Of a stretch of 64,000 nucleotides of DNA, positions 1,120-63,184 are shown one piece after another. A program made the translations under genes and the position numbers. Numbering within the stretch: the first letter of the stretch is position 1; each line of letters opens with the position of its first letter. The stretch lies in assembly GCA_014905635.1 (NCBI GenBank), contig JABVCE010000002.1, forward strand, positions 620,001-684,000, written 5' to 3'. The notes beneath the pieces were generated by a model. The model was not told where the DNA came from and did not search any database. It saw only the letters and a list, made by a program, of their open reading frames with translations. The DNA is from Scenedesmus sp. PABB004. Taxonomy: Eukaryota.

Positions 1120-4100
1120 ATGGCAGGCCTCCTCAGCCACGCGGCGGCGCAGCGGGTGCGCGTGGCCCGAGCGCGCCGCGCGCCGCGCGGCGCGCCGTGC
1201 GCGGCCGTGGCACGGGCCGCGCCGCCGCCGCCCAATCCTGCGCTCCGCCGCCGGCGCAGGCAGCGCCCGGGCCCGCGCGCCTCCTGGCCGCGCTCTGGTC
1301 GAGGCGCCTCTATGCAACAAGCGCGGCGCCGCCGCCCGGTGGGGGCGAGGCCAAGTGCGCCGCCGCGCCAGCGGGGCGCGCGGCGCGGACGTGTGCGCGC
1401 ACCGCCGCCGGCCGGGCCACGCCCGCCCACGCCCGCCCGCGCCCGCCCACGCCGGCGCGCAGGCGGGAGCGGAGCCGGCAGCTGTCGGCGCTGGCGCGCT
1501 ACGGCCGCGACCTGACCGCCGAGGCGCGGCGGGGGCTGCTGGACCCGGTCATCGGGCGGCGCGACGTCATCAGCCGCACGCTGCAGGCGCGGCGCGGCGC
1601 ACGCGCGCGGGGCACGCGCGCAGCGCGCGGGCCGGGCCGGCGCGGCGGCGGTCCGACGACTGCGGCGCGGTCGCAGGTGCTGCTGCGGCGCGCCAAGCAC
1701 AACCCGCTGCTCATCGGCGAGGCGGGCGTGGGCAAGACGGCGATCGCCGAGGGCATCGCGCAGCTCATGGCCGCGCCCGAGCCGATGCGGGGGTGAGAGC
1801 TGAGCTGACCTGCACATTGCGCCGCGCCGCGCCACGCTCGGGAGGCCCGCTGCGTGGCCGGGCCACCGACGCGGCGCGCGCCGCCGATGCGGCGCCGTGC
1901 GCAGGCTGGGCGGCAAGCGCCTGATCGCGCTCGACGTCGCGTCGGTCGTCGCGGGCGCGACGTACCGCGGCGAGTTCGAGGAGCGCCTGCAGGTGCGCGC
2001 GTGCGCGTGGGCGGGTGGGTGAGAGAGGGGGACGGCGCGCGCGGCGCGCGCGTGCCCCGCGCGACGGCGCCTGACGCCTCCGCGTCCGCGGCGGTCCCTC
2101 CCGCCGCCAGGCGCTGCTGCACGACTGCGAGGCGGCGGCGGGCAGCGTGGTGCTCTTCATCGATGAAATCCACGTCCTCGGTGAGCGCGCGCACACCGCA
2201 CCGCATGCCCCGGGGAGGCGGCGCCCGCGCTGCGCGCACTGCGCTGTGCACGCCCCGCCCCGCCCCAGGCGCGCCGACCGGCCCCGCGCCGACGCGCCGC
2301 ACGCCACGCGCCGCGCAGTCGGCACGGGCAACGTCGAGGGCGGCCTTGACTTTGCCAACATGCTGAAGCCCGCGCTCGCGCGCAGCGCGCTGCAGGTGAT
2401 CGGCGCGACCACGCTGGACGAGTACCGGCAGCACATCGAGACAGACCCCGCGCTCAACCGGCGCTTCCAGGCGCGCCCGCGCGCGCCGCGCCGCCCGCGC
2501 GGGGCGCGCCGGAGGACGGGCGCCGTGCGCCCGCGCGCGCTCAGCGCACCGCCGCGCGCTCGGCGCACCGCCGCGTGCCGCCGCGCCGCGCAGCCCATCC
2601 TGGTGGAGGAGCCGTCGCCGAGGGAGTGCCTGGAGCTGCTTGCGGGCCTGGCGCCGCGGTACGAGGCGTTCCACCGCGTGACCATCTCCCAGCAGGCCCT
2701 CGCGACGGCGGTCGCGGCGGCGCAGCGGTGCGCGGCGCCGCGGCGCGCGGGCCGCCCTCGCGCGCGCGCCGGCGGCGCGCCCACGCGCCGCGCGCTGCCG
2801 CGCAGGTACGTGCCCGAGCGCCGCCTGCCCGACTCGGCGCTGGACCTGCTGGACGAGGCGGCGGCCAAGGTCCGGCTGGCGGCGCATGCCACGCAGCAGG
2901 ACGGCGGCGGCGCGGCCGCCGCCGCGCCGCAGCGTGCTGCAGACGGCAGCGCACCACCGAGTAGCAGCTTCCGTGGCGACGGCGGCGCGCCAGAGCAGCG
3001 GCAGGAGCCGACCCCGGCGCTGGGGACGTTTGGCAGCGAGGTCAATGAGGCCCTGGGCAGGGCGGCCGCGGAGCCGGCAGCAGCTGCTGCCGACGAAGCC
3101 GCCGCAGGCAGCGGCGCAGATCGCGCTCGCGGACAGGAGCAGATGCAGCAGACGCAGCAGCAGCAGACGCAGACGCAGCAGCAGCAGACGCAGACGCCGC
3201 CGGCACTCCGGACGCAGCCGCTCGGCGGCGGCGGCGCGCAGCACTCGTGGTCCGACTGGATCACGGCGAAGGGCTGGCGTGGCGAGTCAGAGGTGCACCG
3301 GCAGCAGCTGCTCGAGTGGTTTGGCGCGTCGCCGGCGGAGCCGTTGCCGGGCGTGCTGGGTGAGCGGCGGCGTGCGCGCGACGGGCCCTTGCCGCGCGCC
3401 GCGCGGCCTGACGCCGCGCCCGCTGCTGCTGCCGGTGCACCTCCGCAGGTCACCGCCAGACCACCGAGGAGCGGCGCAAAAAGCACGCGCAGCTGTTCAG
3501 CGGCAGCACAGCCCAGCCCGGCGGCAGCGCCGGCGCCGGCGGCAGCCAGCTGCACGCCGACTTTACGCGCGGCGCGGCGCCGGCGGCGCCGGCGCAGCGG
3601 CAGGCGCGCGGCGGCGACACCAGCCCCCGCTCCTGCCCGCACTGCGGCACGCTCGCGCCGGTGGTGGCGCCGGAGCAGGTCGTTCTGACGTGCGGGAGCT
3701 GCCGCTTCCGCTTCCTGAACGTCGCGCCCGAGAAATTGCAGCTTGGCACGACGGTGCTGCTGGACAAGCAGCAGCAGCGCCCGCTGCGCCTGCAGGCGGC
3801 GGCTGCGGCGGCGGTGCAGCAGGGCGCGTGGGGGCTTGGCGGCGAGCGCCCGCACCGCCACGAGCCCGCCGGCCAGCCGCCGGCCGGCGCCGCCAGCGCG
3901 ACCGCCACGGCGGTGCCTGGGCCGCCCGGCAAGCGCGCCGCAGTGGCGGTGCAGCAGGGGCGGCCGGCGGAGCCGGGCGGCGCCAGCGGTGGGGCCCATG
4001 CGCCCAACAGCAGTTTTTTGGGCCTTGCTGCTGCAGCGGAGGATGGCGGCAGCGGCGGCAGCAGCGGCGGCGGCGGCGGCAGCGGCTGGGGGCTCGCGCC

Positions 4101-5687: not shown

Positions 5688-5761
5688 GTTGCCTCGGCTG
5701 TGAGGTGCAACTCACACCCGTCCCATCGCCGGGGCCGGGCACCGCCGCACCGGCAGGCCAG

Positions 5762-8697
5762 CTAGGCAGCCTCCAGCCCCGCCGCCACGCGCGCGCGCCA
5801 CTCGTCCGCCGTCCACAGCGCCCAGCGCCCGGGCGTTCCGGCAAACGCGAGCACGTGGCTGTGCCAGTCCAGGAGCTGCGGGCGGTGGCCCACGCTCACG
5901 TAGCTGGGGCAGGCGGCGGCCACGAGGCGGTACACGGCCGCCTCGCTGGCGGGGTCCAGCGCCGCCGTCGCCTCGTCGAGCACGGCCAGCGACGGGCGGT
6001 GGTGCAGCAGGCGCACCACGGCGACGCGCTGCTGCTCGCCGAGGGAGAGCACGCTCGCCCAGTCAACCTCGGCGTCGAGGCCGCCAGCGTGCCGCGTCAG
6101 CAGGTGGGACAGCCGCACCGAGCCCACGAGCGCCTCCAGCGCCGCGTCGCGCTCGGCGCCGCCATCGCCGCCGGCCATGTCGATGGCCGTGCTGCTGCCG
6201 GACGGCCGCAACGCCGCCGCCGGTTGCTGCCGCCGCGCCGCGCCGTCGCGCCAGTCGGGGAACGTCAGCTGCGACCGCAGGCTGCCCAGGGGCATGAACG
6301 GGCGCTGCGCAGGAGCGGCCGGGCGGGCGGCGCGCGGGTCGGGGGAGCTGGGCGAGCCAGCGCGCAAGGGGCTGGCGTCAGGGCGGCGCCCGCGCGGCGG
6401 CGGTGCGTCCCACCTGTGCCCACCTGTGGCAGGAAGAAGAGCTCGCTGGCGGGCGGCCCCCGCACCACGCCGCTGCCCGAGGTCCAGAGGCCCGCCAGGA
6501 CGCGCAGCAATGAGCTCTTGCCGCACCCGCTGGGCCCTACGACCAGCAGGGACTCGCCTGCGCACGCCGGGCGCGGCGCGGCGGCGTCGGCGCGGCGCGG
6601 CCCGCCGCGGCGTGGGCCCGCGCGCCGCTGCGCGCCGCACCTGGGGCGAGTGTGAAGCTGAGCCCGCGGCAAACCGGCGTGGGCGCGTGGTGCCGGCCAG
6701 GCACCCAGGCGGACAGCCCCTCCACGACCAGGCCAGGCGACGAGCCATCCATGAGGCGCAACACGCGCGACAGCCCCCGCCCACCGCCCGACGCGTCCGG
6801 CGCGTCCGGCGGCCACCCGCCGCTGCCGCGCCGCCGCCGCGGCGCCGCGCCCGGCCGGCCGCCCTCGCCGCTCGGGCGCCGCGCGTCGTCGCCGTCGGAC
6901 GCGACGAGCAGCCGCGTGGCCTCGCCGTCGTCGCCGTCGTCGCCGCCCTGCCCGTCCGCGCCGCCGCCCTCGCTCTTCTCGGGCGGCTTGGGCCGCCGGC
7001 CGCCCCGCACGCGGCCCGCGAGCCCCGCCAGCGCGCCGAGGCCGCCGCCGTGCGTGGCGCCGCCGGCGGGCGGGAAGCCGCGCACGGCGCCGTTGCCGCC
7101 CGCGTCGACGTCCGCCGCGGCCAGCGCGTCAAGCAGGCCCGAGAGGCGGGACGTCTCCGCCGCGAGCGCGCTGAACTCGTCGAGCTTGGCCAGAATCAGG
7201 CCCAGGGCCCCCTCGAGCACCGAGAACGCGTAGCTCGCCTGGGCGCGCGGGCGCGCGGCACAGCGCGGCGCGGCGCGTCGGCAGCGGCGGCGCCGCGTCC
7301 CGCGCCCCCGCCGCGCCCCGCGCGCGCGCGCGCCTGCGAGAGTGTGCCAAACTCGATGTCGCCGCGAAAGTACTGCGGCGCGAGCACGAGGGACGGCAAC
7401 AGGACGGTCGCGTAGGTGTAGGCGGTCACCCAGAGCTCGTAGAGCCCCAGCCAGCGGATGCGCTGCAGCAGCGCCGCGAGCAGCGCCGCCAAGTGGGCGG
7501 CGAGCGCCCGCGCCTCGCGCGCGTCGCCGCCGTAAAACGCGATCGCTTCGGCGTTTTCCCGCAGGCGCACGAGCCCGAACCGCAGGTCCGCCTCGAGGCG
7601 CAGGATGCGCTGCTGCAGGCGCGTGAGCGGGCGGCCGAAGACGGCTGCGGTGCCAACCGTGCCGAGCAGCGCGTAGGCGAGCAGAAAGGCGACCAGGTGG
7701 GGGCTGATGCTCCACAGCACGCCTGGCGGCGCCGCCCACGGGCGCGGCGGGCGACGGCCAGGCGGGCGGCGGCCAGGCGGGCGGTGAGCGGGCGGCGGCG
7801 CGGCCGCGCGCGGCCGTCGAGCGTCCCGCCGCAGCGCGCAAGCTCACCCGCGAACGCCGCGCAGTTGAGCGACTTTTTTAGCAGCAGCACCGCCAGCCCC
7901 GTGCTCGTCTGCGTGAAGTTGGCCACGTCGGCAACGATGCGCTGGTCGGGGTTGTCCACGCCCGCGGCGGTGCCGCTGAACCCCGCCACGCACGCCGCGG
8001 CGTCCGGCGCCGCCGCCGCTGCGGCCCCGTCGTCCCCCGCCGCCGCCTGCTTGGCTGGCGCCCGCTGCTGCGGCCCCTGCTGCGCCTGCTGCGGCTGCGG
8101 CGGCTGCTGCAGCGCCGCCAGCTCCAGCGCGCCCGCCGCGCCGCCGCCGGCGCCGTCGGGCGGCTCCCCCGCGGCGGCGGCGCCCTCCGTCCCGCGCGCG
8201 AGCTGGAGGTGGAAGTAGGCGTGGCCAGTCGTGTACGCGCTGATCAGCGCGGATGTGCGGCTCGCGCGCCACACCGCGACCAGGCGCTTCTCGACGTACA
8301 CGTCCAGCGCCCGCAGCGGCGCGGCGACGCAAATGATGCCCACAAAGTCGTGCACCGCGGCCATCCACGCCGCTGGGCGCACGGCGGCGCCACGGCGGCG
8401 CCAGGGCGGCGCGCGGCGCGCGGCGGCGGGCGGTCGGCCGCCGCCGCAGCAAGAGCTGCGCGCGGGGGCGCGGCCAGGCGCGGACGCCCTCGCACCTCGG
8501 TTCTTTTCTGCAAGCCCCGTGCTGAAGTGCTTCTGTGCGAACGAGACGCGCACCGCCAGCCACGTCGTGGCCGCCGCCAGCGCGACGCACGCGGCGATGT
8601 ACGCGCGCGCGCGCAACCGCTGCTCGCGCTCCTCGCTGCACACCCACTGCCGCGCGAGGCGCCACCAGGGGCGCAGGTCGGGCAGCCTGCGCGCCAT
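5762..8697 (-). CDS. ABC transporter subfamily D (half-size, YddA/ABCD-like), 5 introns
   Basis: DNPDQRI motif, EAA motif (EADLRFGLVRLRENAEAIAFYGG), Walker A GPSGCGKS, FFLPQRPFM, signature LSLGEQQR, Walker B AVLDEATAALD, SVGHR. Confidence 0.92.
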
Positions 8698-9339: not shown

Positions 9340-11801
9340 ATGATCAGCCAGTTCTTCATCGTCTCGCCCCGCGGCGACGTGATCATCCGCCGCGACTACC
9401 TGGGCAACGTGCCGAAGGCGCGCGCCGCGGCGGCGGCCGGGGGCGGCGGCGCGGCGGGGGCGGGCCTGCGCAGCAGCGGCGCGCGCGGCGCGGCGGCGCC
9501 GCCGAGACCCGCGCGCCGCCGCCCGTGCCTCAGACGAGCACGGAGACGTTCTTCCGCACCTCCAAGTTCTTCAAGCCCGGCGACGAGGCGCCGCCGATCT
9601 TCATCGTCGACGGCGTGTCGTACCTCAGCGTCAAGGCGCGGCACCCGGGCCCTCGCTGCCCATGCGCGCAGCCGCAGCAGCAGCAGCAGCAGCGGCAGCA
9701 GACGCAGACGCAGGAGCAGGAGCAGACACAGGCGCAGCAGCGGCGGCGGCGCCCGCGGCACGGCGCTGACGCGGCGCTGCTGACGCGGCGCTGACGCGGC
9801 GCTGCTGACGCGGCGCTGCCGGCGCGCCCCCGCGCGCAGGATGGCGGCGTGCAGCTGGTCGCCACGACGCGCGACAACGTGTCGCCCTCGTTTGTGCTGG
9901 AGTTCCTGAAGCGCGTCGCCGTCATCATCAAGGTGACCCGCCGCCGCCGCTGCGCCGCCCTGCAGCGCGCACACAGGCGGCGGCGCGGCAGCCGCCGCGG
10001 CCGCAGTCGCAGCGGCGCCCCGCGCCCGGTCCCCCCCCCCCCTCCAAACACACACCACACACAGCCCACACCCGCGCGCCTCGCAGGACTACTGCGGCAG
10101 CCTGGGCGAGGAGGCGATCCGCAAGAACTTCCCGCTCATCTATGAGCTGCTGGACGAGCTGCTCGACTACGGCCTGCCCCAAAACACGAGCACAGAGGCG
10201 CTCAAGACCTTCGTGCTCAACGAGCCCACCGTCGTCGCGCCGCCGGTGCGGCCGCCGCCGCCGCCGCGCGCGGCGCCGCGCCCCCCGCGCCGTGCGCACC
10301 CGCCCGCGCCGCCAGCAGCGCGCCCGCGCCCACGCGCGCGGCCTGCCGCCGCCGGCGCACGCGGTCGGCGTCGCAGCTCGCGCTGAAGCCGCTGTTTGGC
10401 CTGACCAAGGGCCCGACCGGCGTGTTCAAGAGCGTGCTCGACACGCAGCGCACCGACGGGCGGCGGCGGGACGAGATCTACGTCGACGTCGTGGAGCGGC
10501 TCAGCGTTACCTTCAGCGCGGCGGGGCACCCCGTGAGCAGCCAGGTCGACGGCGCGATACAGGTGCGCCCGCGCGCCGCGCGGGCCGCCGCCCCCGACCC
10601 CGCCGCGGACCGCGCGCGCCGTCACATGCCTGCCCTGCCCTCCCGCCCCTCACCCTTCCCTTGCCCCTCCCCGTCCCCTGCACAGGTCAAGAGCTACCTG
10701 TCGGGCAACCCCGGGCTCAAGGTGAAGCTCAACGACGACCTGCTCATCGCGCGCCGCGACGGCAGCGCCTACGCCGGCGGCGGCGGCGGCGGGCGCGGGT
10801 TCAGTGCGGGCGACTACGCGAGCGACGGAGGCCTGGTCATTCTGGACGACGTCAACTTCCACGAGGCGAGCCGGCGCGCGCGTGCGCGTGCGCGTGCTCG
10901 CGTGTGTGGAGGGGGGGTGCTGAGGGGGTGCTCGAACGAGCGCGGCGTGTGTGCTCCGCGCGGTCCGTGGCGCACCGACTGCGGCACCGCGCGCCCGCCG
11001 GCCGGCAGTGCGCCAACCTGGACGCGTTTGACGTGGAGCGCAGCATCAGCCTCGTCCCCCCGGACGGCGAGTTTGCGCTGGCCAACTACCGCACCAGCCA
11101 CGGCCTGCGCCCGCCGTTCCGGCTGAGCATCGCGACCGAGAGCGACGCCGCCAGCGACCACAAGGCGCGGCGGCGCGGCGCGGCGCGGCGCGGCGCGCGC
11201 GGCGCACGCGGCTGCGCGGGCGGTGCCGCGCCGGCGGCGGCCGCGCCGCGCCGGCCGACGCGCGCCCGCGCTTGGTCCCGGTCGCGCGCAGGCGGTGGTG
11301 CGGCTGCGGCTGTGGGCGGACATCCCGCCGGACAAGGCGGCGTCGGGGCTGGAGGTGGAGGTGCCGCTGCCGTCGTGCGTGAGCCGCGTGCACTGCGAGG
11401 TCGAGCCGCCCGGCTCGGCGTGCCTGCAGGGCTGGGAGTTCAACGAGAAGAGCCACCTGCTCAAGTGGCGCTTCAAGAAGCTCCCCGGTGCGGCGACGCT
11501 CCCGCCCGCACGCGAGGACGTGCGTGCGACGCGCCGCGCGCTCACCGCCGCCTCCCGCCGCGCCCGCGGCCCAGGCGGCACCGACCTGTCGATGCGCGCG
11601 CGGCTGACGCTGTCGCGGCCGTTTGGCGCGTCGCTGCGCGGCGAGGTGGGGCCGGTGAACCTCAAGTTCACCATCCCCATGTTCAGCGCGTCCCGGCTGA
11701 GCCTCAAGTACCTGCAGATCATGCGCACCGACAAAAACTTCAACCCCCAGCGCTGGGTGCGCTACGTGACGACCAGCAACAGCTACACCTTCCGCACCTG
11801 A
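9340..11801 (+). CDS. AP4M1: AP-4 adaptor complex medium (mu) subunit, 8 introns
   Basis: [103 protein letters not shown]. These match the plant-type mu4 pattern. Confidence 0.93.
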
Positions 11802-15496: not shown

Positions 15497-18400
15497 ATGG
15501 ACCGAAAGACGCTCGGCTGCGGCGCCGTGCTGGGCGTCGCCGTGTGCGGCGCCACGGCCGCGGCGGCCTACGGCTATGATCAGTTCACCAAGCGCTACCC
15601 CGTGTACAAGCACCAGTGCGAGCTCTTCCGCGAGGTGGGCGGCGTCGGGCATCATGCGCGCTCGGCGCGCCCGCCCGGCGCAGGGAGCGCGGGGTGGGCG
15701 GCGTGACGCCGGTCGGGGGCTTTGAGGAGTACAGTGCACGCGTTGGGCCATTGCCCAGCCTGGACGGCGGCCGGACGCGCCCGCCCGCAGCTGCACGCGC
15801 ATCGCCTCCCGACAGCCTCGCCGCGCCGCGCCGGGGTGCCGACGCGCCGCGCCGCCGCGGCCGCAGTATGAGGAGGCCATGATGCCGCCGCGGGAGCGCA
15901 TGGAGGAGCTGGAGGACGACATCGTGAAGCAGGTGGGCGCCGGGGCAACAGAAGCAGCGGCGCCGCCGGGCCGCGGGCGCGGCGTGCGGCCCTGCCGGCG
16001 CAGCGGCCGCGCTGGCGCGGCGTCCCCACCTGGTGGGTCTGCTGGGACCGCGCCCGCTCAGCCGCGCGGCCGCCGGCGCCGGCCCGCGCGCGCGAGCGCA
16101 GATGCAGCTCGGGATGGACAAGGCGGGCGCCAGCAACATCCTCATGCTCCCCACCTACGTGCTCAAGCTGCCCACCGGGTGCGCGCGCGGCGAGCCGCCC
16201 GGCGCCGCCGCGTCGGCCGCGGGCCGTGCGCGCGCGCGCGCCGCCCCGCGCGCGGCAGCGAGTCCGCGCGCGCTCACGCCTTCCTCTCCCCGCGCCCGCG
16301 CGGCGCGCAGCGACGAGCGCGGCGCGTGCTACGCAATCGACATCGGCGGCACCAACTTCCGGGTCGTCTACTACAAGCTCTCGGACAAGCGCGGCGTCAT
16401 CGTGAGCCGCCGCCGCCGCCGCCGCCGCCGCCGCACGCGGGCCGCGGCAGCTGCGCTGCACCAGCTCCCCAGGTCGCCGGTCCGGCCGGCTCCCCTTCCT
16501 CAGTGCCTCGCCTGCTGACCCCCGCGTGCGCCCCTCCCCCGCCGACCCTCTTGCAGGAGGAGCAGGTGATGAAGCAGGTGGCCATCCCCAAGGAGGTCTA
16601 CACCGGCACCAGCACGCAGCTCTTTGACTTCCTCGCCCTGCAGCTGGCAGACTTCATCAAGGAGCAGGAGGCCCGACACAAGGCGCGGCGCGGCGGGGCG
16701 CGGCTATCCTCACGCAGCGCGCGGCGGCGCCGGCGCGCGCGCCGACGCCGGCGCCGCGCGCGCAGGTGGACGCCGCGACGGCGCCGGCGCCGGTGGTCGG
16801 CTTTTGCTTCAGCTTTGCGGTCGAGCAGCAGGCGCTGGACAGCGGCAAGCTTATGTGCTGGACCAAGGGCTTCAACGTCGACGGCGTGGTCGGCAAGGAC
16901 GTCGTCGCGCTGCTCTCGGGTGCGCGCCACGCCCGCACGCCGCGCCCCGGGGCGGGGCGCGGCCGGGCGGTCGCCGCGCCCTCGCGCCCGCCCGCCAATG
17001 CGTGCCCGCCGCGCTGCGCGCGCAGACGCGCTCACGCGCGCGGGCAAGCCGTGCCGCGTGCTGGCGCTCATCAACGACAGCGTCGGCGTGCTGACCGCGA
17101 GCTGTTACTTTGACCACGCGACCGAGATGGGCGTCATCCTCGGCACCGGCACCAACGCCTGCATCGTCGACAAGGCGCGGACGCCCGCGCGCCGCGCCGC
17201 GCCGCGCTGCCTGGCGACGGCGCGCGCCCCCGGGCGTGCTGCGGGCGCCGCCGCCGGCCTTGCCGGTGGGCATCTTGCTCACCTGCGCGCCTCGCGGCGG
17301 TGCCGTGCCCCGCAGGTGAGCAAGATGCCCAAGTGGCGCCCCAAGGGCGTGCCGGGCGAGACGCGCACGGCGATCAACACGGAGTGGGGCTGCTACGGCA
17401 GCGCGCTGCTGCCGCGCGTGAAGGAGGACCTCGAGCTGGACGCCGCCAGCGGCCCGCAGCAGGGTGCGCCGCGCGCACGTCGCCGCCGCCGCGGCGCACC
17501 CCGCCCGGCTCGCCCCGCCCGCTGCGGCGCCGGCGCGGGGCGCCGCCCGCCGACGCGCGCGGCGCCGCGCGCCCGCGCCCCCGCGCGCGCGCAGGCCGCA
17601 TGCTGGTTGAGAAGCTGATGAGCGGGCTCTACATGGGCGACTGCGCGCGCCGCCTGCTGCTCAGCTTTGCGCAGCGCGCCGACCTCTTTGGCGGCGACAT
17701 CCCCAACAACCTCACCGTCAAGGACTCCTTCACCACCGCGGGTGCGCCCCGGCGTGGGGCCTCGGCGGGCCGCCGCGGCGTGCCCGCGCCGCCGCGCCGC
17801 GCTCGGGGATTTGAGCCCGGGCCTCTGACCCGTTGCGGCCGGGCGGCGGCGTCGCGCAGACATGTGTGAGATTGAGAGCGACACCACGCTCGGGCGCAGC
17901 CGCGTCGCGAGCGTGCTGCAGCAGACGCTGGGGCTCTACCCCGACCACGTCAACCTCGAGACGCGCTACATGGTGCGCGCCCGGCGCAGCCGGCGGGCGG
18001 CCGGCAGCGCGCGCGCGCGCGGGCGGCGGCCGGCGCCGCGCGGCCGGCCGAGCGCGCCCGCCGCCGCTGCGCCCGCCGCGCCCCCGCAGATCCAGGCGAT
18101 CTGCCGCCTCGTGACGCGGCGCAGCGCGCGCGTCGCGGCGGGGCTGCTGGTTGCGGTGCTGCGCCTGCAGGGCTGGCTCGACGCGCCGCGCCGCCTCGTG
18201 GTCGCGGTCGACGGCGGCGTGTTCCTCAAGTACGCCAACTGGCGCACCTTCCTGGACACGTACCTGCGCGAGGCGTTTGGTGCGCGCCCGCGCGCCCGCG
18301 CGCCGCGCTCTGGGGGGCCGCGCGCCGCGCCGCGCCGCACCGCCGGGCAGCCGCCGGGCGGCCGCCGAGCGGGCGGCCGCCGCCGCCGCGCGCAGGCGCG

Positions 18401-18751: not shown

Positions 18752-20366
18752 TCACGCGCGCCCCCACGGCCAGCCCCACCAGCGCCGCCCCCGCGCCAGC
18801 GCGTGCGCGTCCGCTGCGTCCCGCTGCTCTGCCAGCGCTCGCTCCCACTTGGCCTGCAGTGCGCGCTCCAGGCGCGCCAGCTCGCGGTCCAGCGACGGCA
18901 CGCGATGCTGTGTGTGCCACCTCATAATCGCGAATGCCAGCTCTTGGTCGCGCTTGTCCATGTCTGCGCCCATACCGTGCAGGTCCACAGTGAAGTCCGT
19001 CCCCGCCACCTGCTGCCTGCGGGCACTCAGGCGCGCGATCTCCGCCTCGACCTCGGCCGCCGTCCCTGCGCCGCGGCGCGCCGTGCGTGGCGGCGCAGCG
19101 CGGCGGCGCGGCCGAGCGCGCGGGCCAGGCCGCGGGCCGGCCGCGGCGCGTGCACCGTCGAACGGCGCCGGCGGGCGGTGCCCGGACGCCAAGGACGGCC
19201 AGGCCGCGGCGCTGAAGTCGTGGCGGTCGACGGCCGCGAGCTCTGTCTCGGTGAAGCCCTCGACGTAGGCTCCGTACTGGAACAGCGCCATGTCCTGGGT
19301 CAGCCACTTCATGCTCGTGCACACGCGCGCCCCGCGCGGCACGCGCGCCCCGACCCGCCACACCCAGCACTCCCGCCCGCCGCCGCCGCCGCCGCCGGGG
19401 CAGGCCTGGAGCTTGACGGTGTTGGGGCAGCCGTTTTCGTGGTCGCCCATGTCGGCCAGGGGCACGAGCGCGGTGCGGTTGCCGTGGATAAACCCCGCAT
19501 GTCCAGCTGGCGGCGGCGCGGCGGCGGCGACCGCGCCGGCTCAGAGCGGGCGCCGTCGCCCGTGCGCGCGCCGCGCCGTGCTGTGCGCTGGGAGCGCACC
19601 ACGGCGCGCGCTGTCTGCAGCTGGAGCAGCGTCGCCGCGCTGCCCAGCGCCCCTTTGACGTAGTCCCAGTGCGCCTCGGCGGCGCGGGTGAAGTTTGCCT
19701 GGTACGCCGCCACCCAGGCCGTCAGCTCCGGCTGCAGCGCCACCTCCACAAACCTGAGCGGCACGTTGACGATCGAGCGCGCCGGCATGGGCGGCAGCGC
19801 CCGGCGGTAGGCGTAGTGGGGCTTCTCTGCCGAGCGCATGCGCAAAAGAGACCGCACCGCGTCTTTCACGACGTTGCCGCCCTGTCGCGGCCGGCGGCGG
19901 CGGCGGCACGGCGTGCGCGCGGGCGGCGGCGGGGGCGTGCGGCGCTCGCGCCGCTGCACGCGCGCACGGCGGCGGCGGCCGCCCCGCGCGCGCGCGCACG
20001 TCGAACCACAGCGCCAGATCGTTGGACACCACCACCGCCACGTCACCTGCGGTGCCGACCGCCGCTCGTCAGCTTGCAGAGGGGCAAGCTGGCGGAGCGC
20101 GCGGCGCGGCGCCCGTCGCGGCAGCGCGCGCCTGGCGGCAGGTCGCGGCCCGCCACGACCGAGAACGGGTTGTCGCCCTGCTCGCGGATTGCGACGTTGG
20201 AGCTCCCGCCTTGGCCCACCACCCAGCGCACGAGCGCGTCGCCGGCCTCGCTCGGCCGGCCCGGCAGCTCCGCCGCCGGCCGCTGCTGCCGCCCGAGCGC
20301 GCCGCCGCACGCCGCGCACGCAGCGAACACAGCCAGCGCCAGGCCTGGGCGCCTGAGCGGAGCCAT
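18752..20366 (-). CDS. SET-domain-like protein (Rubisco LSMT/SETD3 type) with signal-peptide-like N-terminus, 4 introns
   Basis: LVRWVVGQGG..VVAGRDLPPGDVAVVV, YRRALPP, ALVPLADMGDH, VPRGARVCTSMKWLTQDMALFQYG. One apparent 1-nt frameshift at about 19493-19496. Confidence 0.7.
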
Positions 20367-23800: not shown

Positions 23801-25079
23801 TCCCGCCAAAAGCGCGCGCGCGCCGCGCCTGTCGCACCACTCCCGCGCGCAGCCTGGAGGCGGGTCTGGGCCTGCTGGTGCACTTTGTGTTCCTCATCTT
23901 CTACCTCCTCGTGTGGGGGGTCAACATCGTCAAGGTGACAGACCGCGGCGCCGCGGTGCCGGCAGCGACCGGCGGCGGCAAACCGTGCAGGGCGGCAGCG
24001 CGCGCGGCGCGCGGCGGCGCGACCCCGCCCGCCCGTTTGCGCCGCGGCCGCGGCGCAGGGCTTCACCACCTTTTCCGCCACGGTGCTCGCGCTCACGTTT
24101 GTGTTTGGCGACAGCGTCAAGTCGGTCTTCGAGGCGCGGCGTGGCGCGCGGCGCGCGACGCGCCCACGCGGCCTGTGCTGCGCAGCGCTGCGCTGTGCTG
24201 ACGCCCCGCCCCGTCCCGCCCCGGTCACTGCACCCAGTCGGCGCTCTACCTGTTTGTGGAGCACCCCTACGACGTCGGCGACCTGCTGGTGCTGCCCGGT
24301 GGCACGATGGCGCGGGTCAAGAAGATCGGTGCGCGCGGGCGGGGCGGGCGACTGCTCCAGCGCGTCGGGCCCGCGCCCACCCGCCGCCCCCGGCTCGGCG
24401 CGGCGCGCGCCCCGTGCAGACCTGATGTACACGCAGCTGGTGCGCGGCAGCGGGGAGCTCGTGTGGCACCCCAACAGCATGATGCGCGCCGCGCTGCTGG
24501 TCAACCTGAGCCGCAGCGGGCCAAAGTGGGAGGGCTTCAGCTGGCTCGTCGACGCCGACACCCCGGACGAGGTGCGCGGCGCGCGCTGCGGCCGGCGCCC
24601 GCGCCGCGCGCCGCGGCCGCCGCGGCCGCACGCGCCGCCGGCCGCGCCTGCGCGCAGGTGCTCGCGTCGCTCGAGGCGGCGCTCGCCGCGCACGTCGTGG
24701 CCAACGCGGCGCACTTCTGGGGCCAGCCCACGGTGACGTGGAAGGGCCTGGAGGACCCGCTCAAGCTGCGCCTCGCCGTGGGGGTGACCTACAGCTTCAG
24801 CGGCGAGGACGTGCGGCGCTGGGTCACCGTGCGCACCGCCTTCCTCGGTGCGGGGGCGCGGCGCGGGGGCGCAGCCCGCGCGCGGCAGGCCCGCCCGCCA
24901 GCCGCGCGCCGCGCGCCCGCTCAGCGGCCCCGCCGCCGCCGCCGCGCATGCACGCCTGTGCAGGCGTGGTGCGGCGCGAGCTGCAGGCCGCGGGCGTGCG
25001 CTACACCGTGCCGCCGGGCGGCTCGGGCGTGGCCGAGGTGTTTGCCGAAACGCTGCGGCAGGCGCAGGCGGAGGGCTGA
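20807..25079 (+). CDS. MscS-like (MSL) mechanosensitive channel with an EF-hand, 11 introns
   Basis: Several TM segments, EF-hand AFQYFDRNGDGSISCSEL, ERKNIAASIKDTDSVV, TFVFGDSVKSVFES, LFVEHPYDVGD, PNS..LVNLSRS. Confidence 0.9.
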
Positions 25080-27202: not shown

Positions 27203-27297
<95 letters not shown>

Positions 27298-42841: not shown

Positions 42842-47106
<4,265 letters not shown>

Positions 47107-47364: not shown

Positions 47365-50300
47365 ATGCGGGCCGCCAGCGCGGCGTGCGGCCACGCTGTG
47401 CCGACCGGCGCTCCCGCCGCAGCGCCCCGGCCGCCAGCCAGCAGGCGGCGCGGCGCGCAGGGGCCGCAGTTGGCGCCGGCGGCCGCGAGCGGCGCCGCTG
47501 CCACGGGCGCGCGGCGGCCGCGCGCCCGCGTGGCCGCCGGCGCGGCGCCCCTGGACGACAGCGGCTGGGGTGAGCTCGTGCCCGGCGGCGGCGGCGGCGG
47601 CGGCGCCAGCCAGCCCGCCGGCGGCGCCAGGCGCGGCAGCGGCGGCAGGCGCGCCGACGCTGGCGGCGGCGACGGCGGCGGCGGCGGCGGTGACGGCAGC
47701 GGCGGCTGGTACGGAGGCGTTGAGGGAGTGCCGCCCGCCCCGCAGCCGCGCGGGCCGCGGCCCGGCGGTGCCAGGGGCAGGCCCGGCGACGGCGGGCCCG
47801 CGAGCGGGGGCCGGTCGCAGCAGCGCGAGCGCCGCAGCGGCGGCGGCGAGCGCGGCGACGCCGCCGGCGGCGGCGAGCGCTGGAGCTACGGTGCCGGCGG
47901 CGACGAGGAGCGCAGCAGGGAGTGGCAGCGCGGCGGCACCGCCGGTCGGCCGAGCAGCAGCCCCGGCACCAGCCCTGGCAGCAGGTGGGCGGGCGACGCT
48001 CGTGGGGGCAGCAGCGGCCGCCCCAGCAGCAGCGCCGACCGCCCCAGCGGCAGCGAGCGCGCCGGCGGCAGCAGCAGCGGCAGCGGCGACCGCCCCGGCG
48101 CCGGCTGGGCCCGCGGCGCCGGCGGCGCCGCGCCCCGCGCCGCCGGCGCGCCGCCGGCGGCCAAGCGGCGGCAGAAGGGCGAGAAGAAGGCCGCGGCGCT
48201 CGCGCCGAGCGGCACGCCCAGCTGCTACGGCTGCGGCGCGGCGCTGCAGACGGGCGTGGCGTCGGCGGCGGGGTACGTGGAGGCGGCCAAGTACGAGGTC
48301 AAGGCGCGGCACCGCCAGCTCAAGCGCGTGCTCTGCGCGCGCTGCGCGGGGCTGTGCAACGGCGCGATGATCCCCGCCGTGCAGGACTTCACGCAGAAGG
48401 CCTGGGCCGCGCAGCAGGCGGCGCTGCTGCAGGGGCACGACGCGGCGCAGCCGGCGGGCGCCGCCGCGGCGGGCGCGGCGGCGGGCCCGGCGGCCGCGGC
48501 CGGCGACGCGGGCGAGCAGCTGGAGCTGCTGGGGAAGCTGCTGGTCACGCCGGAGCAGCTGCGGGACAAGATCTCGGTGCGGCGGCGCGCGGGCGGGGGC
48601 AGCGGGGCGGGGGCCTCGCGGCCGGCCAGCCTGCCGGCGCGGCGCGGCGCGGCGCGGCGCGCGTGGCGGCGGCGCGCGCGCTCACGCACGCACCCGCTCG
48701 CGCGCGCCCCGCAGGAGGTGCGCGGCGTGAAGGCGCTGGTGGTGCTGCTGGTGGACCTGCTGGACGCGTCTGGCAGCTTCATGAGCAAGGCACGCGCTGG
48801 GGGGGAGGGGGGGGGGGGGGGGGGCTTTGGGGCTTTGGGCGCCCGGCGGCCTGGCTGCGCAGCGGCCGAAGGGCCCTGACGCGGGCCCCCGCTCACGCGC
48901 CGCCGCGCCTCTTGACCCCTTAACCCCCTGGCCCCCCGACCCCCTGGCCCGCAGGTGCGGGACATGGTGGGCAACAACCCCATCCTGCTCGTGGGCACCA
49001 AGATGGACCTGCTGCCCCCCGGCTGCCGGCCCAAGGACGTCGCGGCGTGGCTCGCCGACGCGGCGGCGCGGCGGCGCCTCGCGGTCGCGTCGGCGCACCT
49101 CGTGAGCGCGCACAGCGGCGAGGGCGTCGCGGCGGTCACCGCCAAGATCGCGCGCGAGCGCAAGGGCCGCGACGTCTTTGTCGTCGGCGCCGCCAACGTC
49201 GGCAAGTCGGCGTTCGTCCGCGCCGTGCTCCGGGAGATGAGCAGGCGCGGCGCCGCCGCGGCGCCGCGGCCCGCCGGCGCCGGCGCGACGCGCGTGCCGC
49301 TCCCCGCCGACCCTCGCTGACCGCGCCCGCCCGCCGCGCCGCAGCCTCACGGGCGGCAACTTTGACGCCGCCGCGCTGGCCACGCGGCGCTACCTGCCGG
49401 TGGAGAGCGCGATGCCGGGCACCACGCTCGGCCTCATCCCCCTGCAGGCGTTTGAGACGGGCGGCACGCTCTACGGTGAGCGCGCGCCCGACCGCGGCGC
49501 GGCATGCGTGCCGCGCGGTGGCGACGGACGCGCCCCGCGCCACGCCGCGTCACGCCGCGCCCGCGCCCGTGCGCCCGCGCAGACACGCCCGGCGTGCACC
49601 TCCACCACCGCGTCCCGCACATGCTCACGCCCGCGGAGCTGCGCCTGCTGCACCCGCGCAAGCGCCTGCTCGCGTACGCGCCGCCGACGCCGCTGGAGGT
49701 CGTGCGCGCGCAGGAGGAGGAGGAGGAGGACGGCGCCGGCGGCGCCGGCGGCTACGGCCTCCCGGCGCCACGGCCGCGGCCCAAGAGCGTGTCCGCGAGC
49801 TACGTGTGGAGCGGGCTCGCGCGCGTCGACGTGCTGTCGGGCCCGCCGAGCACGCAGCTCGTGTTCTACGGCCCCCGCACGCTGCGCGTCTACGCGGCGC
49901 CGCTGCTGGCCGAGGGCGAGGCCTTTGAGCTGGACGCCGAGGACGACGAGGGCGAGGAGGGCGAGGAGGGCGAGGAGGAGGAGGGCGAGCAGGCGCAGGA
50001 CGGCGAGGGCGACGGCGAGGGCGGCGACGACGCTGGCGCCGGCGGCGCCGGCGCGCGCGCGCGGCGCGGCGGGCGGCGGCTGCTGCTCGCGCGCGAGAGC
50101 GTCGCCGCGCGCGGCGGGCTGGTGCCGCACAGCGTCGTCGTGCGGCCGCCGCTGCCGACGGCCGAGTGCCTCGCCGACGTCGCCGTGAGCGGGCTGCCGG
50201 GCTGGGTCGGCGTGTACGCCCCGTTCACGCGCGGCGAGGTCGTGCTGCGCGTGTGGGCGCCGCGCGGCGTGGAGGTTTTCCTGCGCCCGCCGCTGCCCTG

Positions 50301-51161: not shown

Positions 51162-51734
51162 ATGGCGCCGCCGTGGCAGGAGGACGCAGGCAAGGTGGTC
51201 ATCGAGTTCCTCAAGGGAAACTCGGGCGCGCGGCGCACGATCGTGCTCAAGCACAGCGCCGCGTCGGTGCCGCCGCAGCTCGCGGGCCGCGTGCCGCCGG
51301 CGGCGTGGGCGGCCTTCATGGCTGACGTCGAGGCCGCCGCCGCGGCACACCCGTACGTCGTCAAGCCCTCCGCCGGCCGCGTCGGGAGCTGGGCCGGCGC
51401 CGCGGTGCTGGGCGCCGTGCTGGGCGTGTGCTGCATGAACCCCGATGGCGGCAATTACTCTGACTGGCTCCCGCAGGCGCGCCGAGGCTGGGCGGCGGGG
51501 GCGCGGAGCGCGGCTGGGCCGTCCCCCGCTGACCCCCTCCCCGCCCCCGCGCAGGTGGACGCGCTGATCGCGCGCCACGCGCCCGCGTTTGCCGCGGGCG
51601 GCGCCGCGCTGTCGCTGCAGCGCGCGCAGCGGTCGTATTGGATCGAGGTGAAGGTCAACCCCGCCATGGCCGTCGGCCAGCCGGTCGGCCCGCCTGCGCC
51701 CAAGCCGGGCTTTGAGCCGGGCAACGCGGTGTGA
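51162..51734 (+). CDS. Hypothetical ~164-aa protein with Erf4/GOLGA7-like layout, 1 GC-AG intron
   Basis: Clean two-exon ORF (51162-51476 and 51555-51734): PPQLAGRVPPAAWAAFMADV, hydrophobic stretch ending in CC, final WIEVKV strand. Confidence 0.6.
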   Translation: MAPPWQEDAGKVVIEFLKGNSGARRTIVLKHSAASVPPQLAGRVPPAAWAAFMADVEAAAAAHPYVVKPSAGRVGSWAGAAVLGAVLGVCCMNPDGGNYSDWLPQARRGWAAGARSAAGPSPADPLPAPAQVDALIARHAPAFAAGGAALSLQRAQRSYWIEVKVNPAMAVGQPVGPPAPKPGFEPGNAV

Positions 51735-57129: not shown

Positions 57130-57468
57130 GCTCCCGGGCGTGCGAAACGACGCTGCCGGCCAGCGCCCCGCCACTGCGGCGGCGACGTTGCCTGCCGCGC
57201 GGCGCGGCCCGGCGCACGCGAGCGCGCCGCAGCTGCCCGCCCGCGCGGCCGCCCCGGAGTCGCCAGCCAGGAAGGAAGGGTCACGCTCATCAGCGGCAGC
57301 GGCGGCGCGCCGGACAGGCCGGGCGGGCCGCCGCGCCGCGCGCCGGGTGCGGCAGTCAGTGATCGAGCGCAGTTCTCTCCCGCCGCGCGGTGCGCACGAC
57401 AAGCAAGCAGCGCACGTGGCCGGCGCTCCTGTGTCCGCGGTGGCGCTGCCGCCGTCGCCCGTCCGCGG

Positions 57469-58402
57469 TCACAGCAGGAGCGCCGCGGCCGCGACCGCCG
57501 CCGCGACGGCGGCGGCCGCCGCGCCCGCGCGCTGCCCGGCGCCGCTGGTCGCGGTGGCGGCCTTGCCGTCCAGGTAGTTGGTGAAGGCGGTGAGGCTGTT
57601 GAAGCGCGGGAAGCAGGAGGGCTTGGCGTCCGCGGCGGCCTCGGCCTCGCCCGCGCCGGTGCGCTGCGGCGGGCGCGGGCGCGCGTGTGCCTCTTGGCGG
57701 CCCGCGCCGCGGCGGCGGCGGCGCCCCCGTGCGCCCGCGCCGCTCCGCTGCCCCCTGGCGGCGGCGGCGGCCGCGCTGCTGCTTCTGCTGCTGCTGCCGC
57801 CGCCGCCCCGCGCCGCACCTCGTTGACGTTGAGCACCTCGCACCCCTTGATGAACGACAGCCACGCGTCACGCGCCTGCGCGCGGCCGCGGCGCCGCGGC
57901 GCGGCGCGCGCGGGGTCGGCGGCCGCCCGACGGACGCGCGCGCGCGCGCGCGCGTACGCGCGCCGCCGCCGCCCGGCCGCGCGCGGCGCGGGCCGCCGCG
58001 CACCCCTGGCTGGGACATGCACTTCTGCACCGCCGAGCCGGGGCCGGCCTCCGCGCCGCCGGGGCAGTCGCTGTAGTCGCCCGCCTTGGCGGGCGCGCTC
58101 GAGAGGGCGTCCTTGATCTTGTCGCCGCAGTCCGAGTCGCCGCCGTAGTTGGTCTTCATCAGCTGCGCCCGACGACGGCCGGCGGGGGCGGAGCGGGGCG
58201 TGTGCGTGCGGGCGGGCGCCGGCCAGCGCCGCCAGCGCGCCGCCGCGGGCTGCTGCTGCCGTGCGCGCGCCTTGTCGAACTGGTCCTTGCAGTTGGCCGA
58301 CACGGTGTTGATCGTGCGGTCGCCGGTCGCCGAGCCCGCGGCGGTCGCGGCCGCGAGCGCCAGCAGCGCCGCCAGCAGCGCGGCGCGGGGCGGCAGCGCC
58401 AT
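57469..58402 (-). CDS. Small Cys-rich secreted protein, predicted GPI-anchored, 3 introns
   Basis: Signal MALPPRAALLAALLALAAATAAG, six Cys, and C-terminal SGA followed by a hydrophobic tail [16 protein letters not shown]. Confidence 0.75.
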
Positions 58403-60293: not shown

Positions 60294-60704
60294 GGCACAC
60301 TGTTGTTGACTGCACTTGAACACGCCACGAACTGCATGCCTTGACGCACACTGAAGCTGCATCGGGGAATGAGGCGCGCCTGCGCCCCATCGAGCTGTGA
60401 GGCAAGCGAGGTACGCCGCGGCCCGCGCCGCCGGCGCCCTGGCAACCTGAGCCGCGGGCCGCCCGCTCAGCTCTTTGAGCTTAGGACTGCTCCAATCTGC
60501 TCCCGCGCGTGGGGGCGCACGCTGCGGAGCACACCAGCGCGCGCCCGGACTCCTCGCGGGCTCGCCGCGCACACGCACCCGGTCCGTGACGCACGCGAGG
60601 GCTGGGCGTGCACTCCCAGCTCCTGCAGCCTCCACCAGCTTTTGCCGTGCACGGGGGAGCTTGGCGGGCACCGCGGCGACCCGCGCCCGGCCCTGGCTGC
60701 GGGG

Positions 60705-63184
60705 ATGGCGCGCAGTTGCCTTGGCGCGCCCGCGCGGCAGCAGCGCGGGTCCTGCAGAGGCACGCTCCTGGCGCGAGCGGCGATGCTGATGGTGACGCTG
60801 CTGGGCGCGCACGTCGCAGGTGGGCGCGGCCGGCACCGCGCGGCAGCGCGCCGCCGCTGCTGCCGTGCCCGCCGCCGCGCCCGGCGCTGACAGGCTGCCC
60901 TCTCCGCGTGCATGCGGCAGGCGCGACTCGTCTGCGTGACGGTAGACGGCTGGAGCAGGCGCAGCGGGACGCGCGCGCCGGCGGCGGCAGCGGCAGCAGC
61001 GGCGGCGTGCGCGGCGCGGCGCGCGGCGCGGCTCGCGCACCTGTCGCCCCGGCAGCGGCGCACGCGGCTGCCAACTCCACCCCAGGAGCACCACCTCCAG
61101 CGACAGCAGCGGACAAGCCGGCGGCGGCTGCGCACGCGCCGGCGGCGGCGGCGCACGCGGCGGCGGTGGGGCCGTCGCGCGGGCTGCGGCAGGTCGGCAG
61201 CACGCTGGGGTACGATGCCTACGGCTTTGGCTACTACGACCCCTACGTGGCGGGCGTGACGCCGGGGTTTGTCAACGTGGACCTGAACCGCGAGACGGGG
61301 TTGCATGTCGGCGTCGGCGACGTCGCGGTCGACGTGTCGGCTGACAAAAACTACTACGGCGTCGGCATCGGCAACGCCGTCGGCGTCGGCGCGGCGCGCG
61401 ACCGTGGCTGGAACCTGCAGCTCGGCGGCGGCAGCGTGCTCGACGTCTCCATGACCAAGGCGCGGCGCCGCGGCGGGCAGCGCGGCGGCAGGGGAGCGGG
61501 GGGCGGCGGCAGGGGACGGCGGGCGGCAGGGGCGGCGGCTCCACTGCCGCCGCCGCTGCGGCAGCACTGACCGTTGCCGCCCCCCTGCGCCGCACGCGGC
61601 GCTGCGGCCTGCGCCCGGCAGGACGCGGGGCTCGGGCTGTGGGTGCTGGACGGGCTGCTGAACGTCAACATCGGCCCCGACGGCGCGGGCTGGTCGAGCG
61701 GGCAGGTCAAGGGCGCGACCGAGCCCTCGGGCGCCACGCCGGCGGAGCTGGGGGAGATCGTCGTCGACGACGCCCTCATCGCCGCGGCGGCCGGCGGCGG
61801 CGGCGGCGGCGGCGCGCAGGCGCCGCTCACCGACCCCGCGGCCTTCCCGCAGACGCCCGGCGGGGGCGCGCCCGAGCCGCCGCCCGCGAGCGTGCCCAGC
61901 TACTACTACCAGCCCGCCCCCGCCCCCGGCGGCGGCGTGGAGCACAACCCCGCGCTCGACCCCGCGGCCGCGTTTGCGGGGTCGGTCGAGGTCACCCCCG
62001 CGCCGGCGCAGGCCGACCCGGTGCTGGCCTCGAGCTACGTCGACTACGGCGGCGCCGACGAGGGCGGCGCCTACACGAGCGGCGGGCCCGGCGGCGGCGA
62101 GCCCGCGGCGGAGAGCGCGCTGCCGGCGTACGACTTCCTGGAGGCGCTCGACTACGACGCGTACGCGACGCAGGCCGCGGCGCCGCCGCACGCGCGGCTC
62201 GCGGGCGCCGGCGCCGGCAGCGCGGGCGCCGGCGGCGCCGGGTTCATGGTGGCGCGCCCGGCGGCGGCGGTCGCGGTGCCGCCGGAGCAGCAGGCGGTGC
62301 AGCCGCCGCCGGCGGCCGCGGCGCCGCAGCAGCTGGCGCAGCAGGCGCCGCAGCAGTCGCGGCAGGCTCTGCCATCGCAGCCGCCGCCGTACCTGCCGTC
62401 ACAGGCGCCGCAGCAGCTGGCGCAGCAGGCGCCGCAGCAGTCGCGGCAGGCTCTGCCATCGCAGCCGCCGCCGTACCTGCCGTCACAGGCGCCGCAGCAG
62501 CTGGCGCAGCAGGCGCCGCAGCAGTCGCGGCAGGCTCTGCCATCGCAGCCGCCGCCGTACCTGCCGTCACAGGCGCCGCAGCAGCTGGCGCAGCAGGCGC
62601 CGCAGCAGTCGCGGCAGGCTCTGCCATCGCAGCCGCCGCCGTACCTGCCGTCACAGGCGCCGCAGCAGCTGGCGCAGCAGGCGTGGCAGCTGCCGCCATA
62701 CCTGCCAGCGCAGGCGCCGCAGCAGGCGCCGCAGCAGCTGCCGCAGCAGGTGCTGCAGCGGTTGCCGCAGCAGGCGTCACCGCAGGCGTGGCAGGCGGCG
62801 GCGGCCGCGCTGCCGCCGCAGCTGCCAGCGCAGGCGGTGCAGCCGGCCGCCCAACAGCCGCCGGCGCAGCTGCTGCAGCAGGCGTCGCAGCTGCCGCAGC
62901 AGGCGGCGCCGCAGCCAGAGGCAGACGCGGTGTGGAGCACGGCGTCGCAGTACAGCGACACCGCGCGCGCGCGGCTCGCCGCCGCGGTGCCGCTGGCCGA
63001 CGTGACGGTGGCGCCGCCGGCGGCGGCGCCGGCGCAGCTGCCTGCGCCCTCCGCGGCGTCGGCGGCGCGGCGCGCGTGCGAGGGCGGCGAGCAGGTGTGG
63101 GTGAGCGGCACCAAGTTCAAGTGCCGCTACGCGGCACAGCGCGGCCCGCCGGTGCGGACCTACGCCAACGGCATCGCCGTGTGA
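60705..63184 (+). CDS. Secreted Pro/Gln-rich repeat protein with a Gly/Val/Tyr-rich beta-strand N-terminal domain, 2 introns
   Basis: Hydrophobic leader [19 protein letters not shown]. Introns at 60820-60920 (GT) and 61460-61621 (GC) keep the frame. Long final exon with 28-aa repeats. Confidence 0.7.
62321..62682 (+). repeat. 84-bp coding tandem repeat x4.3 ([28 protein letters not shown])
   Basis: Identical units start at 62321, 62405, 62489 and 62573, with a partial unit at 62657. Confidence 0.95.

Follow-up and report, generated by a model that had tools for sequence, protein, structure and literature searches.

GC-AG introns are frequent in a GC-rich 64-kb window of Scenedesmus sp. PABB004 and follow an exonic AG

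Introduction

What does it take for an intron that begins with GC rather than GT to be spliced, and why should a genome hold many of them? The question is raised by a stretch of 64,000 nucleotides from the green alga Scenedesmus sp. PABB004 (contig JABVCE010000002.1, positions 620,001 to 684,000). In this stretch, called the window below and numbered from its first letter, a first-pass annotation assigned GC donors to 23 introns and proposed a shifted 5′ splice-site code, based on a variant U1 or U6 small nuclear RNA (snRNA) or on exon-side contacts, as an adaptation to extreme GC pressure. Gene prediction and comparison with orthologues confirm, as judged from sequence, that GC donors are real and frequent splice sites in the window, with 39056 on the minus strand as the weakest of the 23.

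GC-AG introns make up about 1.2–1.3% of introns in plants and animals, with an average of 1.2% for plants (PMC6310983, PMC3033335), and the compensation that accompanies them has been studied in human genes (PMC3167603). (Statements about the papers cited here and below refer to the excerpts drawn on.) The baseline of about 1% that the annotation adopted is inapplicable to GC-rich algae. Iwata and Gotoh (2011, PMC3033335) give GC-AG shares of 39.6% for Aureococcus anophagefferens, 22.2% for Micromonas pusilla, and 7.7% for Chlorella sp., and tie the fraction to G+C content while finding G+C alone insufficient to account for it. The share is about 14–17% in pelagophytes (preprint 10.1101/2024.10.30.620910), and in Emiliania huxleyi GC donors amount to 56–65%, as confirmed by RT-PCR, expressed sequence tags (ESTs), and RNA-seq (Feldmesser et al. 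2014, PMC4028052). A high GC-AG share in GC-rich algae is already known, and the alga of the window adds another case. Among the papers listed by a literature search, none reports GC-AG frequency for Scenedesmaceae or other Sphaeropleales; “GC-AG” did not occur in the Sphaeropleales genome papers listed, nor “intron” or “splice” in PMC12571836.

Results

Sequence of the GC donor sites

At all 23 coordinates an exonic AG is followed by GC, and 21 of the sites read AG^GCGCG, where the caret marks the exon–intron border, just as the first-pass annotation had described them. The two departures are 10866 (AG^GCGAG) and 48790 (AG^GCACG). An AG acceptor was found for 22 of the introns; that of 39056 on the minus strand was taken from a model admitting AG only. 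None of the donors resembles the U12-type consensus ATATCC quoted in PMC3033335. The tallies of four GC-AG introns among the eight of the AP-4 mu gene (AP4M) and four among the eleven of the MscS-like gene were both reproduced. The introns are listed in Table 1.

Junctions tested against orthologues and profiles

For each junction with a usable orthologue, all in-frame pairs of donor and acceptor, of any dinucleotide, were enumerated, and the joined peptide was scored against the orthologue (BLOSUM62 global score). Stop codons are rare in the window, so that open reading frame calls and gapped protein-to-DNA alignments continue right through introns; gapped tblastn chains joined exons via stop-free introns, and the exon chains used for homology were ungapped high-scoring segment pairs. 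The references included P0006, a transcript-derived dihydroxy-acid dehydratase (ILVD) orthologue of 602 residues; P0122, a Tetradesmus protein; and P0126 and P0129, which are transcript-derived or transcript-like.

GC-AG scored above the best GT-AG pair at all 12 junctions tested in this way: two in ILVD, four in AP4M, four in the MscS-like gene, and two in the ClpB-type gene. The best GT-AG alternative deleted or inserted 2–12 residues in conserved stretches, or did not exist. At 1587, for example, it carries a seven-residue deletion, and the GC donor is kept in the ab initio model; at 43523(−) it inserts 12 residues. Among the enumerated pairs, no GT-AG pair was in frame at either 2471 or 11165. 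The junction peptide formed by GC-AG splicing at 45348(−) is identical to that of P0006. With GT and GC donors together, the ILVD model aligns with P0006 over a single stretch of 560 residues without gaps, with 481 identities, whereas the GT-only model has 12 + 4 gap residues.

Some details of these tests deserve mention. The test at 10866 covered P0129 and P0126, with P0124 left out, and the Pfam Adap_comp_sub coordinates there run 74 to 74 over the join. At 11165 the GC-AG pair scores 94 (P0122), 86 (P0126), and 69 (P0129), in each case 1–6 below a shifted non-canonical pair. Pairs that tie are one- or two-base shifts giving the same mRNA, and the sole known intron type among them is GC-AG. 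The join at 23489 restores a loop that we take to be EF-hand-like.

Two further junctions, 16683 and 17175 in the hexokinase gene, fit Pfam profile coordinates. Support for the other nine (7333−, 20131−, 31434−, 39056−, 48790, 49245, 51477, 58270−, and 61460) is ab initio. The exon upstream of 7333(−) matches ABCD structures in the Protein Data Bank (PDB) but without useful reach to the junction, and its downstream exon was not placed by PDB or Pfam searches. At 31434(−) the KH_1 profile stands at 55/66 by the penultimate residue of the upstream exon, and the next exon is too short for scoring. The exon downstream of the 48790 intron matches residues 93–185 of YqeH (3h2y_A); because 48790–48954 contains two in-frame stops, retention of this intron in frame is impossible. 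The 49245 intron, at 100 nucleotides, is no multiple of three. Queries of the PDB with the short exons on either side of 48790, 49245, and 7333 produced no match.

Table 1. GC-AG introns of the window. Donor contexts are given as exon^intron. Paired scores are GC-AG versus best GT-AG against the orthologue named; nats give the gain in gene-finder score at the 1% prior.
Gene	Intron	Strand	Donor	Evidence
ClpB/Hsp104-type	1587..1676	+	ctgcag^GCGCGG	gapless versus P0182; 62 versus 44
ClpB-type	2471..2593	+	ttccag^GCGCGC	restores conserved RRFQ stretch versus P0156 and P0182
ABCD-type transporter	7239..7333	-	tcgcag^GCGCGC	ab initio only, +12.2 nats
AP-4 mu, intron 1	9418..9533	+	ccgaag^GCGCGC	109 versus 89 (P0122), 91 versus 71 (P0126), 68 versus 51 (P0129)
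AP-4 mu, intron 2	9636..9839	+	gtcaag^GCGCGG	105 versus 84 (P0122), 111 versus 91 (P0126), 103 versus 93 (P0129)
AP-4 mu	10866..11008	+	cacgag^GCGAGC	92 versus 70 (P0129), 78 versus 57 (P0126)
AP-4 mu	11165..11291	+	cacaag^GCGCGG	GC-AG 93 with P0124, top score
Hexokinase	16683..16765	+	cacaag^GCGCGG	Hexokinase_1 extrapolates to ~123 and 123 (within one position); +22.7 nats
Hexokinase	17175..17315	+	gacaag^GCGCGG	Hexokinase_2 17 and 18 exactly at exon ends; +7.4 nats
No family match	20047..20131	-	cgccag^GCGCGC	ab initio only, +5.0 nats
MscS-like	21760..21871	+	ttccag^GCGCGC	98 versus 76 (P0142)
MscS-like	23489..23656	+	cggcag^GCGCGG	111 versus 40 (P0142)
MscS-like	23756..23852	+	cgacag^GCGCGG	99 versus 61 (P0142)
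MscS-like	24134..24237	+	ttcgag^GCGCGG	96 versus 68 (P0142)
KH-domain	31323..31434	-	gaccag^GCGCGC	ab initio, +7.2 nats
No family match	38970..39056	-	atgcag^GCGCGC	claimed intron, weakest case; 0 gain
Dihydroxy-acid dehydratase	43370..43523	-	catcag^GCGCGC	115 versus 93 (P0006); ILV_EDD_C profile 73 and 73
Dihydroxy-acid dehydratase	45231..45348	-	gagcag^GCGCGC	111 versus 55 (P0006)
YqeH/NOA1-type GTPase	48790..48954	+	agcaag^GCACGC	ab initio, +7.5 nats
YqeH-type GTPase	49245..49344	+	gagcag^GCGCGG	ab initio, +4.8 nats
Small gene, no family match	51477..51554	+	ccgcag^GCGCGC	ab initio only, +5.0 nats
No family match	58163..58270	-	gacaag^GCGCGC	ab initio only, +10.8 nats
Repeat-rich gene	61460..61621	+	accaag^GCGCGG	ab initio only, +7.5 nats

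Gene-finder predictions and controls

The ab initio evidence comes from a Viterbi gene finder of our own, which combines codon log-odds with splice-site weights trained solely on GT donors and was applied to 23 strand-assigned regions. A GC donor carried a penalty of 4.6 nats, equivalent to a 1% prior. At this prior 126 introns were predicted, 97 with GT and 29 with GC donors. The predictions include all 17 of the homology-verified GT introns, 11 of the 12 verified GC introns, and 21 of the 23 listed donors. The two that were missed are 9636, where the model took 9732 instead, and 39056, which is picked solely when the GC penalty lies between 0 and −2.3 nats. At a penalty in this range (intron cost −6 or lower) all 23 were recovered. 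Intron totals vary from 118 to 159 with the parameters; the 126 at the setting used agree with the roughly 124 of the first-pass annotation. GC-AG introns make up about 18% of the introns in the window (22–23 of ~120–126), or about one in five. An early pass without splice-site weights called GC too often (77 GC versus 51 GT of 128), and a pass without an intron-length cost merged adjacent genes.

When the sites were allowed singly at the 1% prior, the model score rose by 2.9–22.7 nats for 22 of the 23; the gain for 39056(−) was 0. Random GC sites, taken as a control, gave a gain in 2 of 184 cases. Of the 4,128 G^GC sites that lie on the sense strands and are not among the 23, 25 gave a gain; 12 of these lie in one strand-ambiguous locus (32156–32562), and the others gained at most 3.9 nats. 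A crude scan for codon periodicity yields exon-like segments that end precisely at many of the listed donors, among them 1586, 2470, 9417, 10865, 11164, 17174, 24133, 48789, and 61459 on the plus strand and 31435, 43523, 45348, and 58271 on the minus strand.

Donor consensus and the exon-side rule

The 97 GT donors define a local consensus, G^GTG(C/A)G, with G at −1 in 84, at +3 in 95, and at +5 in 89. Position +4 is C in 69, A in 18, and G in 10, and position −2 is free (A 28, C 32, G 23, T 14). In the 23 GC donors A at −2, G at −1, and G at +5 are invariant, and G at +3 and C at +4 each occur in 22. The difference at −2 is pronounced (A in 23/23 versus 28/97, Fisher p = 7e-11) and persists when only homology-verified donors are counted (12/12 versus 4/17, p = 6e-5). 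C or A at −3 is likewise commoner in GC donors (21/23 versus 62/97, p = 0.011), as are G at −1 (23/23 versus 84/97) and G at +5 (23/23 versus 89/97). Median intron lengths are alike, 124 nucleotides for GT and 112 for GC.

A census of heptamers, which involves no hand selection, leads to the same rule. AGGCGCG serves as a donor at 21 of its 83 occurrences, CGGCGCG at 2 of 579, GGGCGCG at 0 of 228, and TGGCGCG at 0 of 78, whereas NGGTGCG donors occur with every N (A 16, C 20, G 12, T 10). Donors preceded by AG are divided almost evenly, with 24 GT and 23 GC.

Since C at +4 is normal in the GT donors of the window, GCGCG is the GTGCG consensus with one T-to-C change. GC donors are thus the local consensus altered at +2, and they are tolerated solely after the strongest exon end. 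The other donor positions are nearer consensus in GC than in GT donors, as in classical compensation. The first-pass annotation had regarded GCGCG as a shifted code specific to GC introns, with C at +4 as a second mismatch peculiar to them; instead, C is what introns of the window usually have at +4, whatever their donor. Its third option, reliance on exon-side contacts, fits the obligatory A and G at −2 and −1.

A less GC-rich relative

A metagenome locus with 70.5% G+C, L006, contains a green-algal AP4M orthologue at 1552–4636. None of the eight introns of this orthologue departs from GT-AG (GTGAG in five, GTGCG in three), as against four GC-AG introns in the window gene. One orthologous phase-0 intron can be compared directly: its donor is cacgag^GTGAGG in L006 and cacgag^GCGAGC at 10866 in the window. 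It is the one L006 AP4M intron of the eight that is exactly co-positioned with a window intron; another is displaced by some two residues from the 11165 intron. Turnover of intron positions separates the two algae, and no synteny between L006 and the window was found beyond AP4M.

Public gene models

The best protein matches of the window are from Scenedesmus and Tetradesmus, and two public proteins of a Scenedesmus strain, P0121 (AP4M) and P0141 (MSL9), match window exons with 100% identity. P0121 makes use of every one of the four GC donors in AP4M. P0141, which corresponds to 21560–24237 (+), uses none of those in the MscS-like gene and joins GT donors to later acceptors. It lacks exon 21655–21759, the end of 23291–23488 together with 23657–23755, and 24059–24133. 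Each of these exons is bounded by a GC donor (21760, 23489/23756, and 24134, respectively), and all are present in the orthologue P0142. The number of residues missing relative to the orthologue is 112 for P0141, 31 for our GT-only model, and 10 for the GC-aware model. The lost exons include a stretch aligned with the conserved membrane segment of the channel.

Other features of the window

The window has a G+C content of 78.8% and contains no N; its introns, at 87–88%, are richer still. Pfam searches with 148 exon-like segments named genes for a ClpB/Hsp104-type ATPase, an ABCD-type transporter, an AP-complex mu subunit, an aldose epimerase, Psb28, hexokinase, a KH protein, dihydroxy-acid dehydratase, a YqeH-type GTPase, and cytochrome b561, among others. 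Rfam gave no match at gathering score, and hence no snRNA, inside the 64 kb.

The second intron of ILVD, placed by homology at 45447–46416 (−), is 970 nucleotides long against a window median of about 124, and neither an exon-like segment nor an Rfam match was found inside it. A tandem repeat at 62320–62690 (+), with a unit of 84 nucleotides, 4.4 copies, and 99% matches, sits within the long final exon of the gene at 61193–63184 and encodes a Pro/Gln-rich repeat of 28 residues. The segment 31888–32445, which has no Pfam match, displays strong codon periodicity on both strands (71.8 on plus and 58.2 on minus); when it is set to the minus strand, the gene finder takes nearly any nearby GC donor. 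An origin of the GC introns from introners or a repeat family was considered and rejected: all-against-all blastn reveals just low-complexity similarity, common to GT and GC introns.

Discussion

The 23 introns are probably ordinary GC-AG introns of the major (U2-type) spliceosome that have become unusually frequent, at about 18% in the window, through GC-biased drift and compensation. A strong substitution bias from AT to GC would have raised G+C to 79% in the window and to 87–88% in its introns, and would convert the T at +2 into C in the local G^GTG(C/A)G donors. The new C would survive only at optimal sites, those with the exon end (C/A)AG and with G, C, and G at +3 to +5, where the pairing lost at +2 would be offset by exon-side U1 pairs (A at −2, G at −1) and by G at +1 and +5. 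The U1 5′ consensus quoted in PMC3033335 is AUACUUACCUG. The exon end (C/A)AG matches its positions 9–11, and the GC donors would therefore be weaker sites in need of compensation rather than sites matched by an altered U1. The direct basis for this account consists of the sites themselves, the collinear match of the spliced products to orthologues, the dependence on exon context, and a single GT intron at an orthologous position in a less GC-rich relative; that canonical U1 pairing and GC-biased substitution are the cause is what we infer from them. The data do not establish the adaptation envisaged in the first-pass annotation and are explained by a by-product of GC-biased substitution.

Several observations weigh against this account. 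Micromonas RCC299, with 64% G+C, has just 2.7% GC-AG introns (PMC3033335). By our own count, canonical U1 forms only four Watson–Crick pairs and one wobble pair with AG^GCGCG, so that a further factor beyond canonical U1 pairing may be needed. GC donors carry C at +4 more often than GT donors do (22/23 versus 69/97, p = 0.014); canonical U1 pairing predicts A, not C, as the compensating base at this position and leaves the enrichment unexplained. The figure of about 18% comes from one 64-kb window, possibly unrepresentative of the genome. The junctions are supported by protein collinearity and by our own gene finder, and the reference proteins include gene predictions (P0122 and P0142 among them).

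The gene finder, moreover, lacks specificity for the dinucleotide. With CG on offer in place of GC, 28 such sites were used for a gain of 213 nats, as against 274 for GC, and other dinucleotides were used 6–17 times for gains of 67–114 nats. We read the CG sites as neighbours of true GC sites. Because the finder accepts other dinucleotides, what it reveals is introns without a usable GT; their exact borders come from homology and from known splicing chemistry. The context AG^..GCG marks 19–22 of the 29 sites in the GC set and at most five in the set of any other dinucleotide.

The same evidence bears on other explanations. One of them, that the C at +2 reflects base-calling or assembly error, or that hand-traced borders are wrong and transcripts use GT donors, might appeal to the sequence-based tracing of the junctions and to the abundance of GC dinucleotides (27,322 on both strands), which places one near almost any exon end. 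We consider it next to negligible: errors would ignore the base at −2, yet donors make up 21 of the 83 AGGCGCG sites but just 2 of the 885 with C, G, or T in first place; 39 intact AGGTGCG sites are present, 16 of them donors; the GT-AG alternatives are worse or absent in all 12 homology tests; and the public model P0121 uses four GC donors. Another explanation is that the splicing RNAs have co-evolved, with an altered U1 (or U6) pairing with GUGCG and GCGCG and making these donors good matches. The near invariance of G at +3 and C at +4 in both donor classes, the still higher frequency of C at +4 in GC donors, and the poor pairing of canonical U1 with AG^GCGCG would all fit such a change. It nevertheless appears very improbable. 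A at −2 and G at −1 are obligatory for GC but not for GT donors, as expected if C at +2 weakens the site; the mixture of GTGAG and GTGCG in the 70.5%-GC relative looks like gradual compositional drift at +4; and in Aureococcus and M. pusilla, with 22–40% GC-AG introns, the U1 5′ end is that of the consensus (PMC3033335). The tests that were possible do not support a shifted code or a variant snRNA, and the closest precedents argue against them.

A change might lie instead in a protein or modification component, such as U1 snRNP proteins, base modifications, or later proofreading, that relaxes discrimination at +2 while the RNAs stay canonical, a suggestion made by Iwata and Gotoh for Aureococcus and M. 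pusilla (PMC3033335). The nearly equal numbers of GC and GT donors after AG imply that the cost of C at +2 must be small there, and G+C alone fails to predict the GC-AG share of M. pusilla (22.2%) and RCC299 (2.7%) (PMC3033335). The window says nothing on proteins, and neutral drift at 87–88% G+C should leave C or G at most +2 positions, but about 80% of donors retain T, which indicates that discrimination is still strong; we regard a relaxed component as distinctly unlikely. Somewhat broader is the notion that recognition has shifted to a (C/A)AG^GYGCG code, through the U1 5′ end, modifications, or U1/U6-associated proteins, with C preferred at +4 and C at +2 nearly neutral after AG. This too is unlikely, but, if true, it would make the alga a natural mutant of the interaction between U1 and the 5′ splice site.

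Compensated drift of ordinary U2-type introns, the explanation that we favor, places the window beside known cases. Aureococcus, M. pusilla, and Chlorella share with it a very high G+C content, a GC-AG fraction far above 1–2%, and the AG acceptor, and the latter two are green algae. The window differs in its G+C content (78.8% versus 66–70%) and belongs to another green-algal group; the strict requirement for AG before the donor and the GCGCG consensus are absent from the account in the excerpts of PMC3033335. In those excerpts the eleven nucleotides at the 5′ end of U1 equal the consensus in Aureococcus and in both Micromonas. In E. huxleyi, as here, a shift from GT to GC donors is ascribed to genomic GC, the AG acceptor is kept, and annotation is misled, in the window by P0141. 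That organism is a haptophyte in which GC donors are a majority and are confirmed by RNA, whereas they are a minority of about 18% here, recognized from sequence. Ordinary GC-AG introns of plants and animals resemble those of the window in being U2-type, in their AG acceptor, and in having other donor positions nearer consensus, especially the exon end AG. They are more than 10 times rarer, and the window has GCG rather than AAG at +3 to +5 (compare AG^GCAAG, the form quoted in the first-pass annotation).

That GC-AG introns go with genomic G+C was known already; the window extends the association to a sequence that ranks among the most GC-rich of eukaryotes. Ab initio annotation of E. huxleyi calls too few GC donors and mis-predicts junctions (PMC4028052), and an assembly with the same protein names as the public Scenedesmus models is listed with just 7,092 genes and with more gene-family contractions than any other in its group (PMC12571836). 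It could be that part of this low gene number, and of the contractions, is an artefact of annotation. Frequent GC donors mislead gene annotation, and the rule that GC is used only after AG can be built directly into gene finders.

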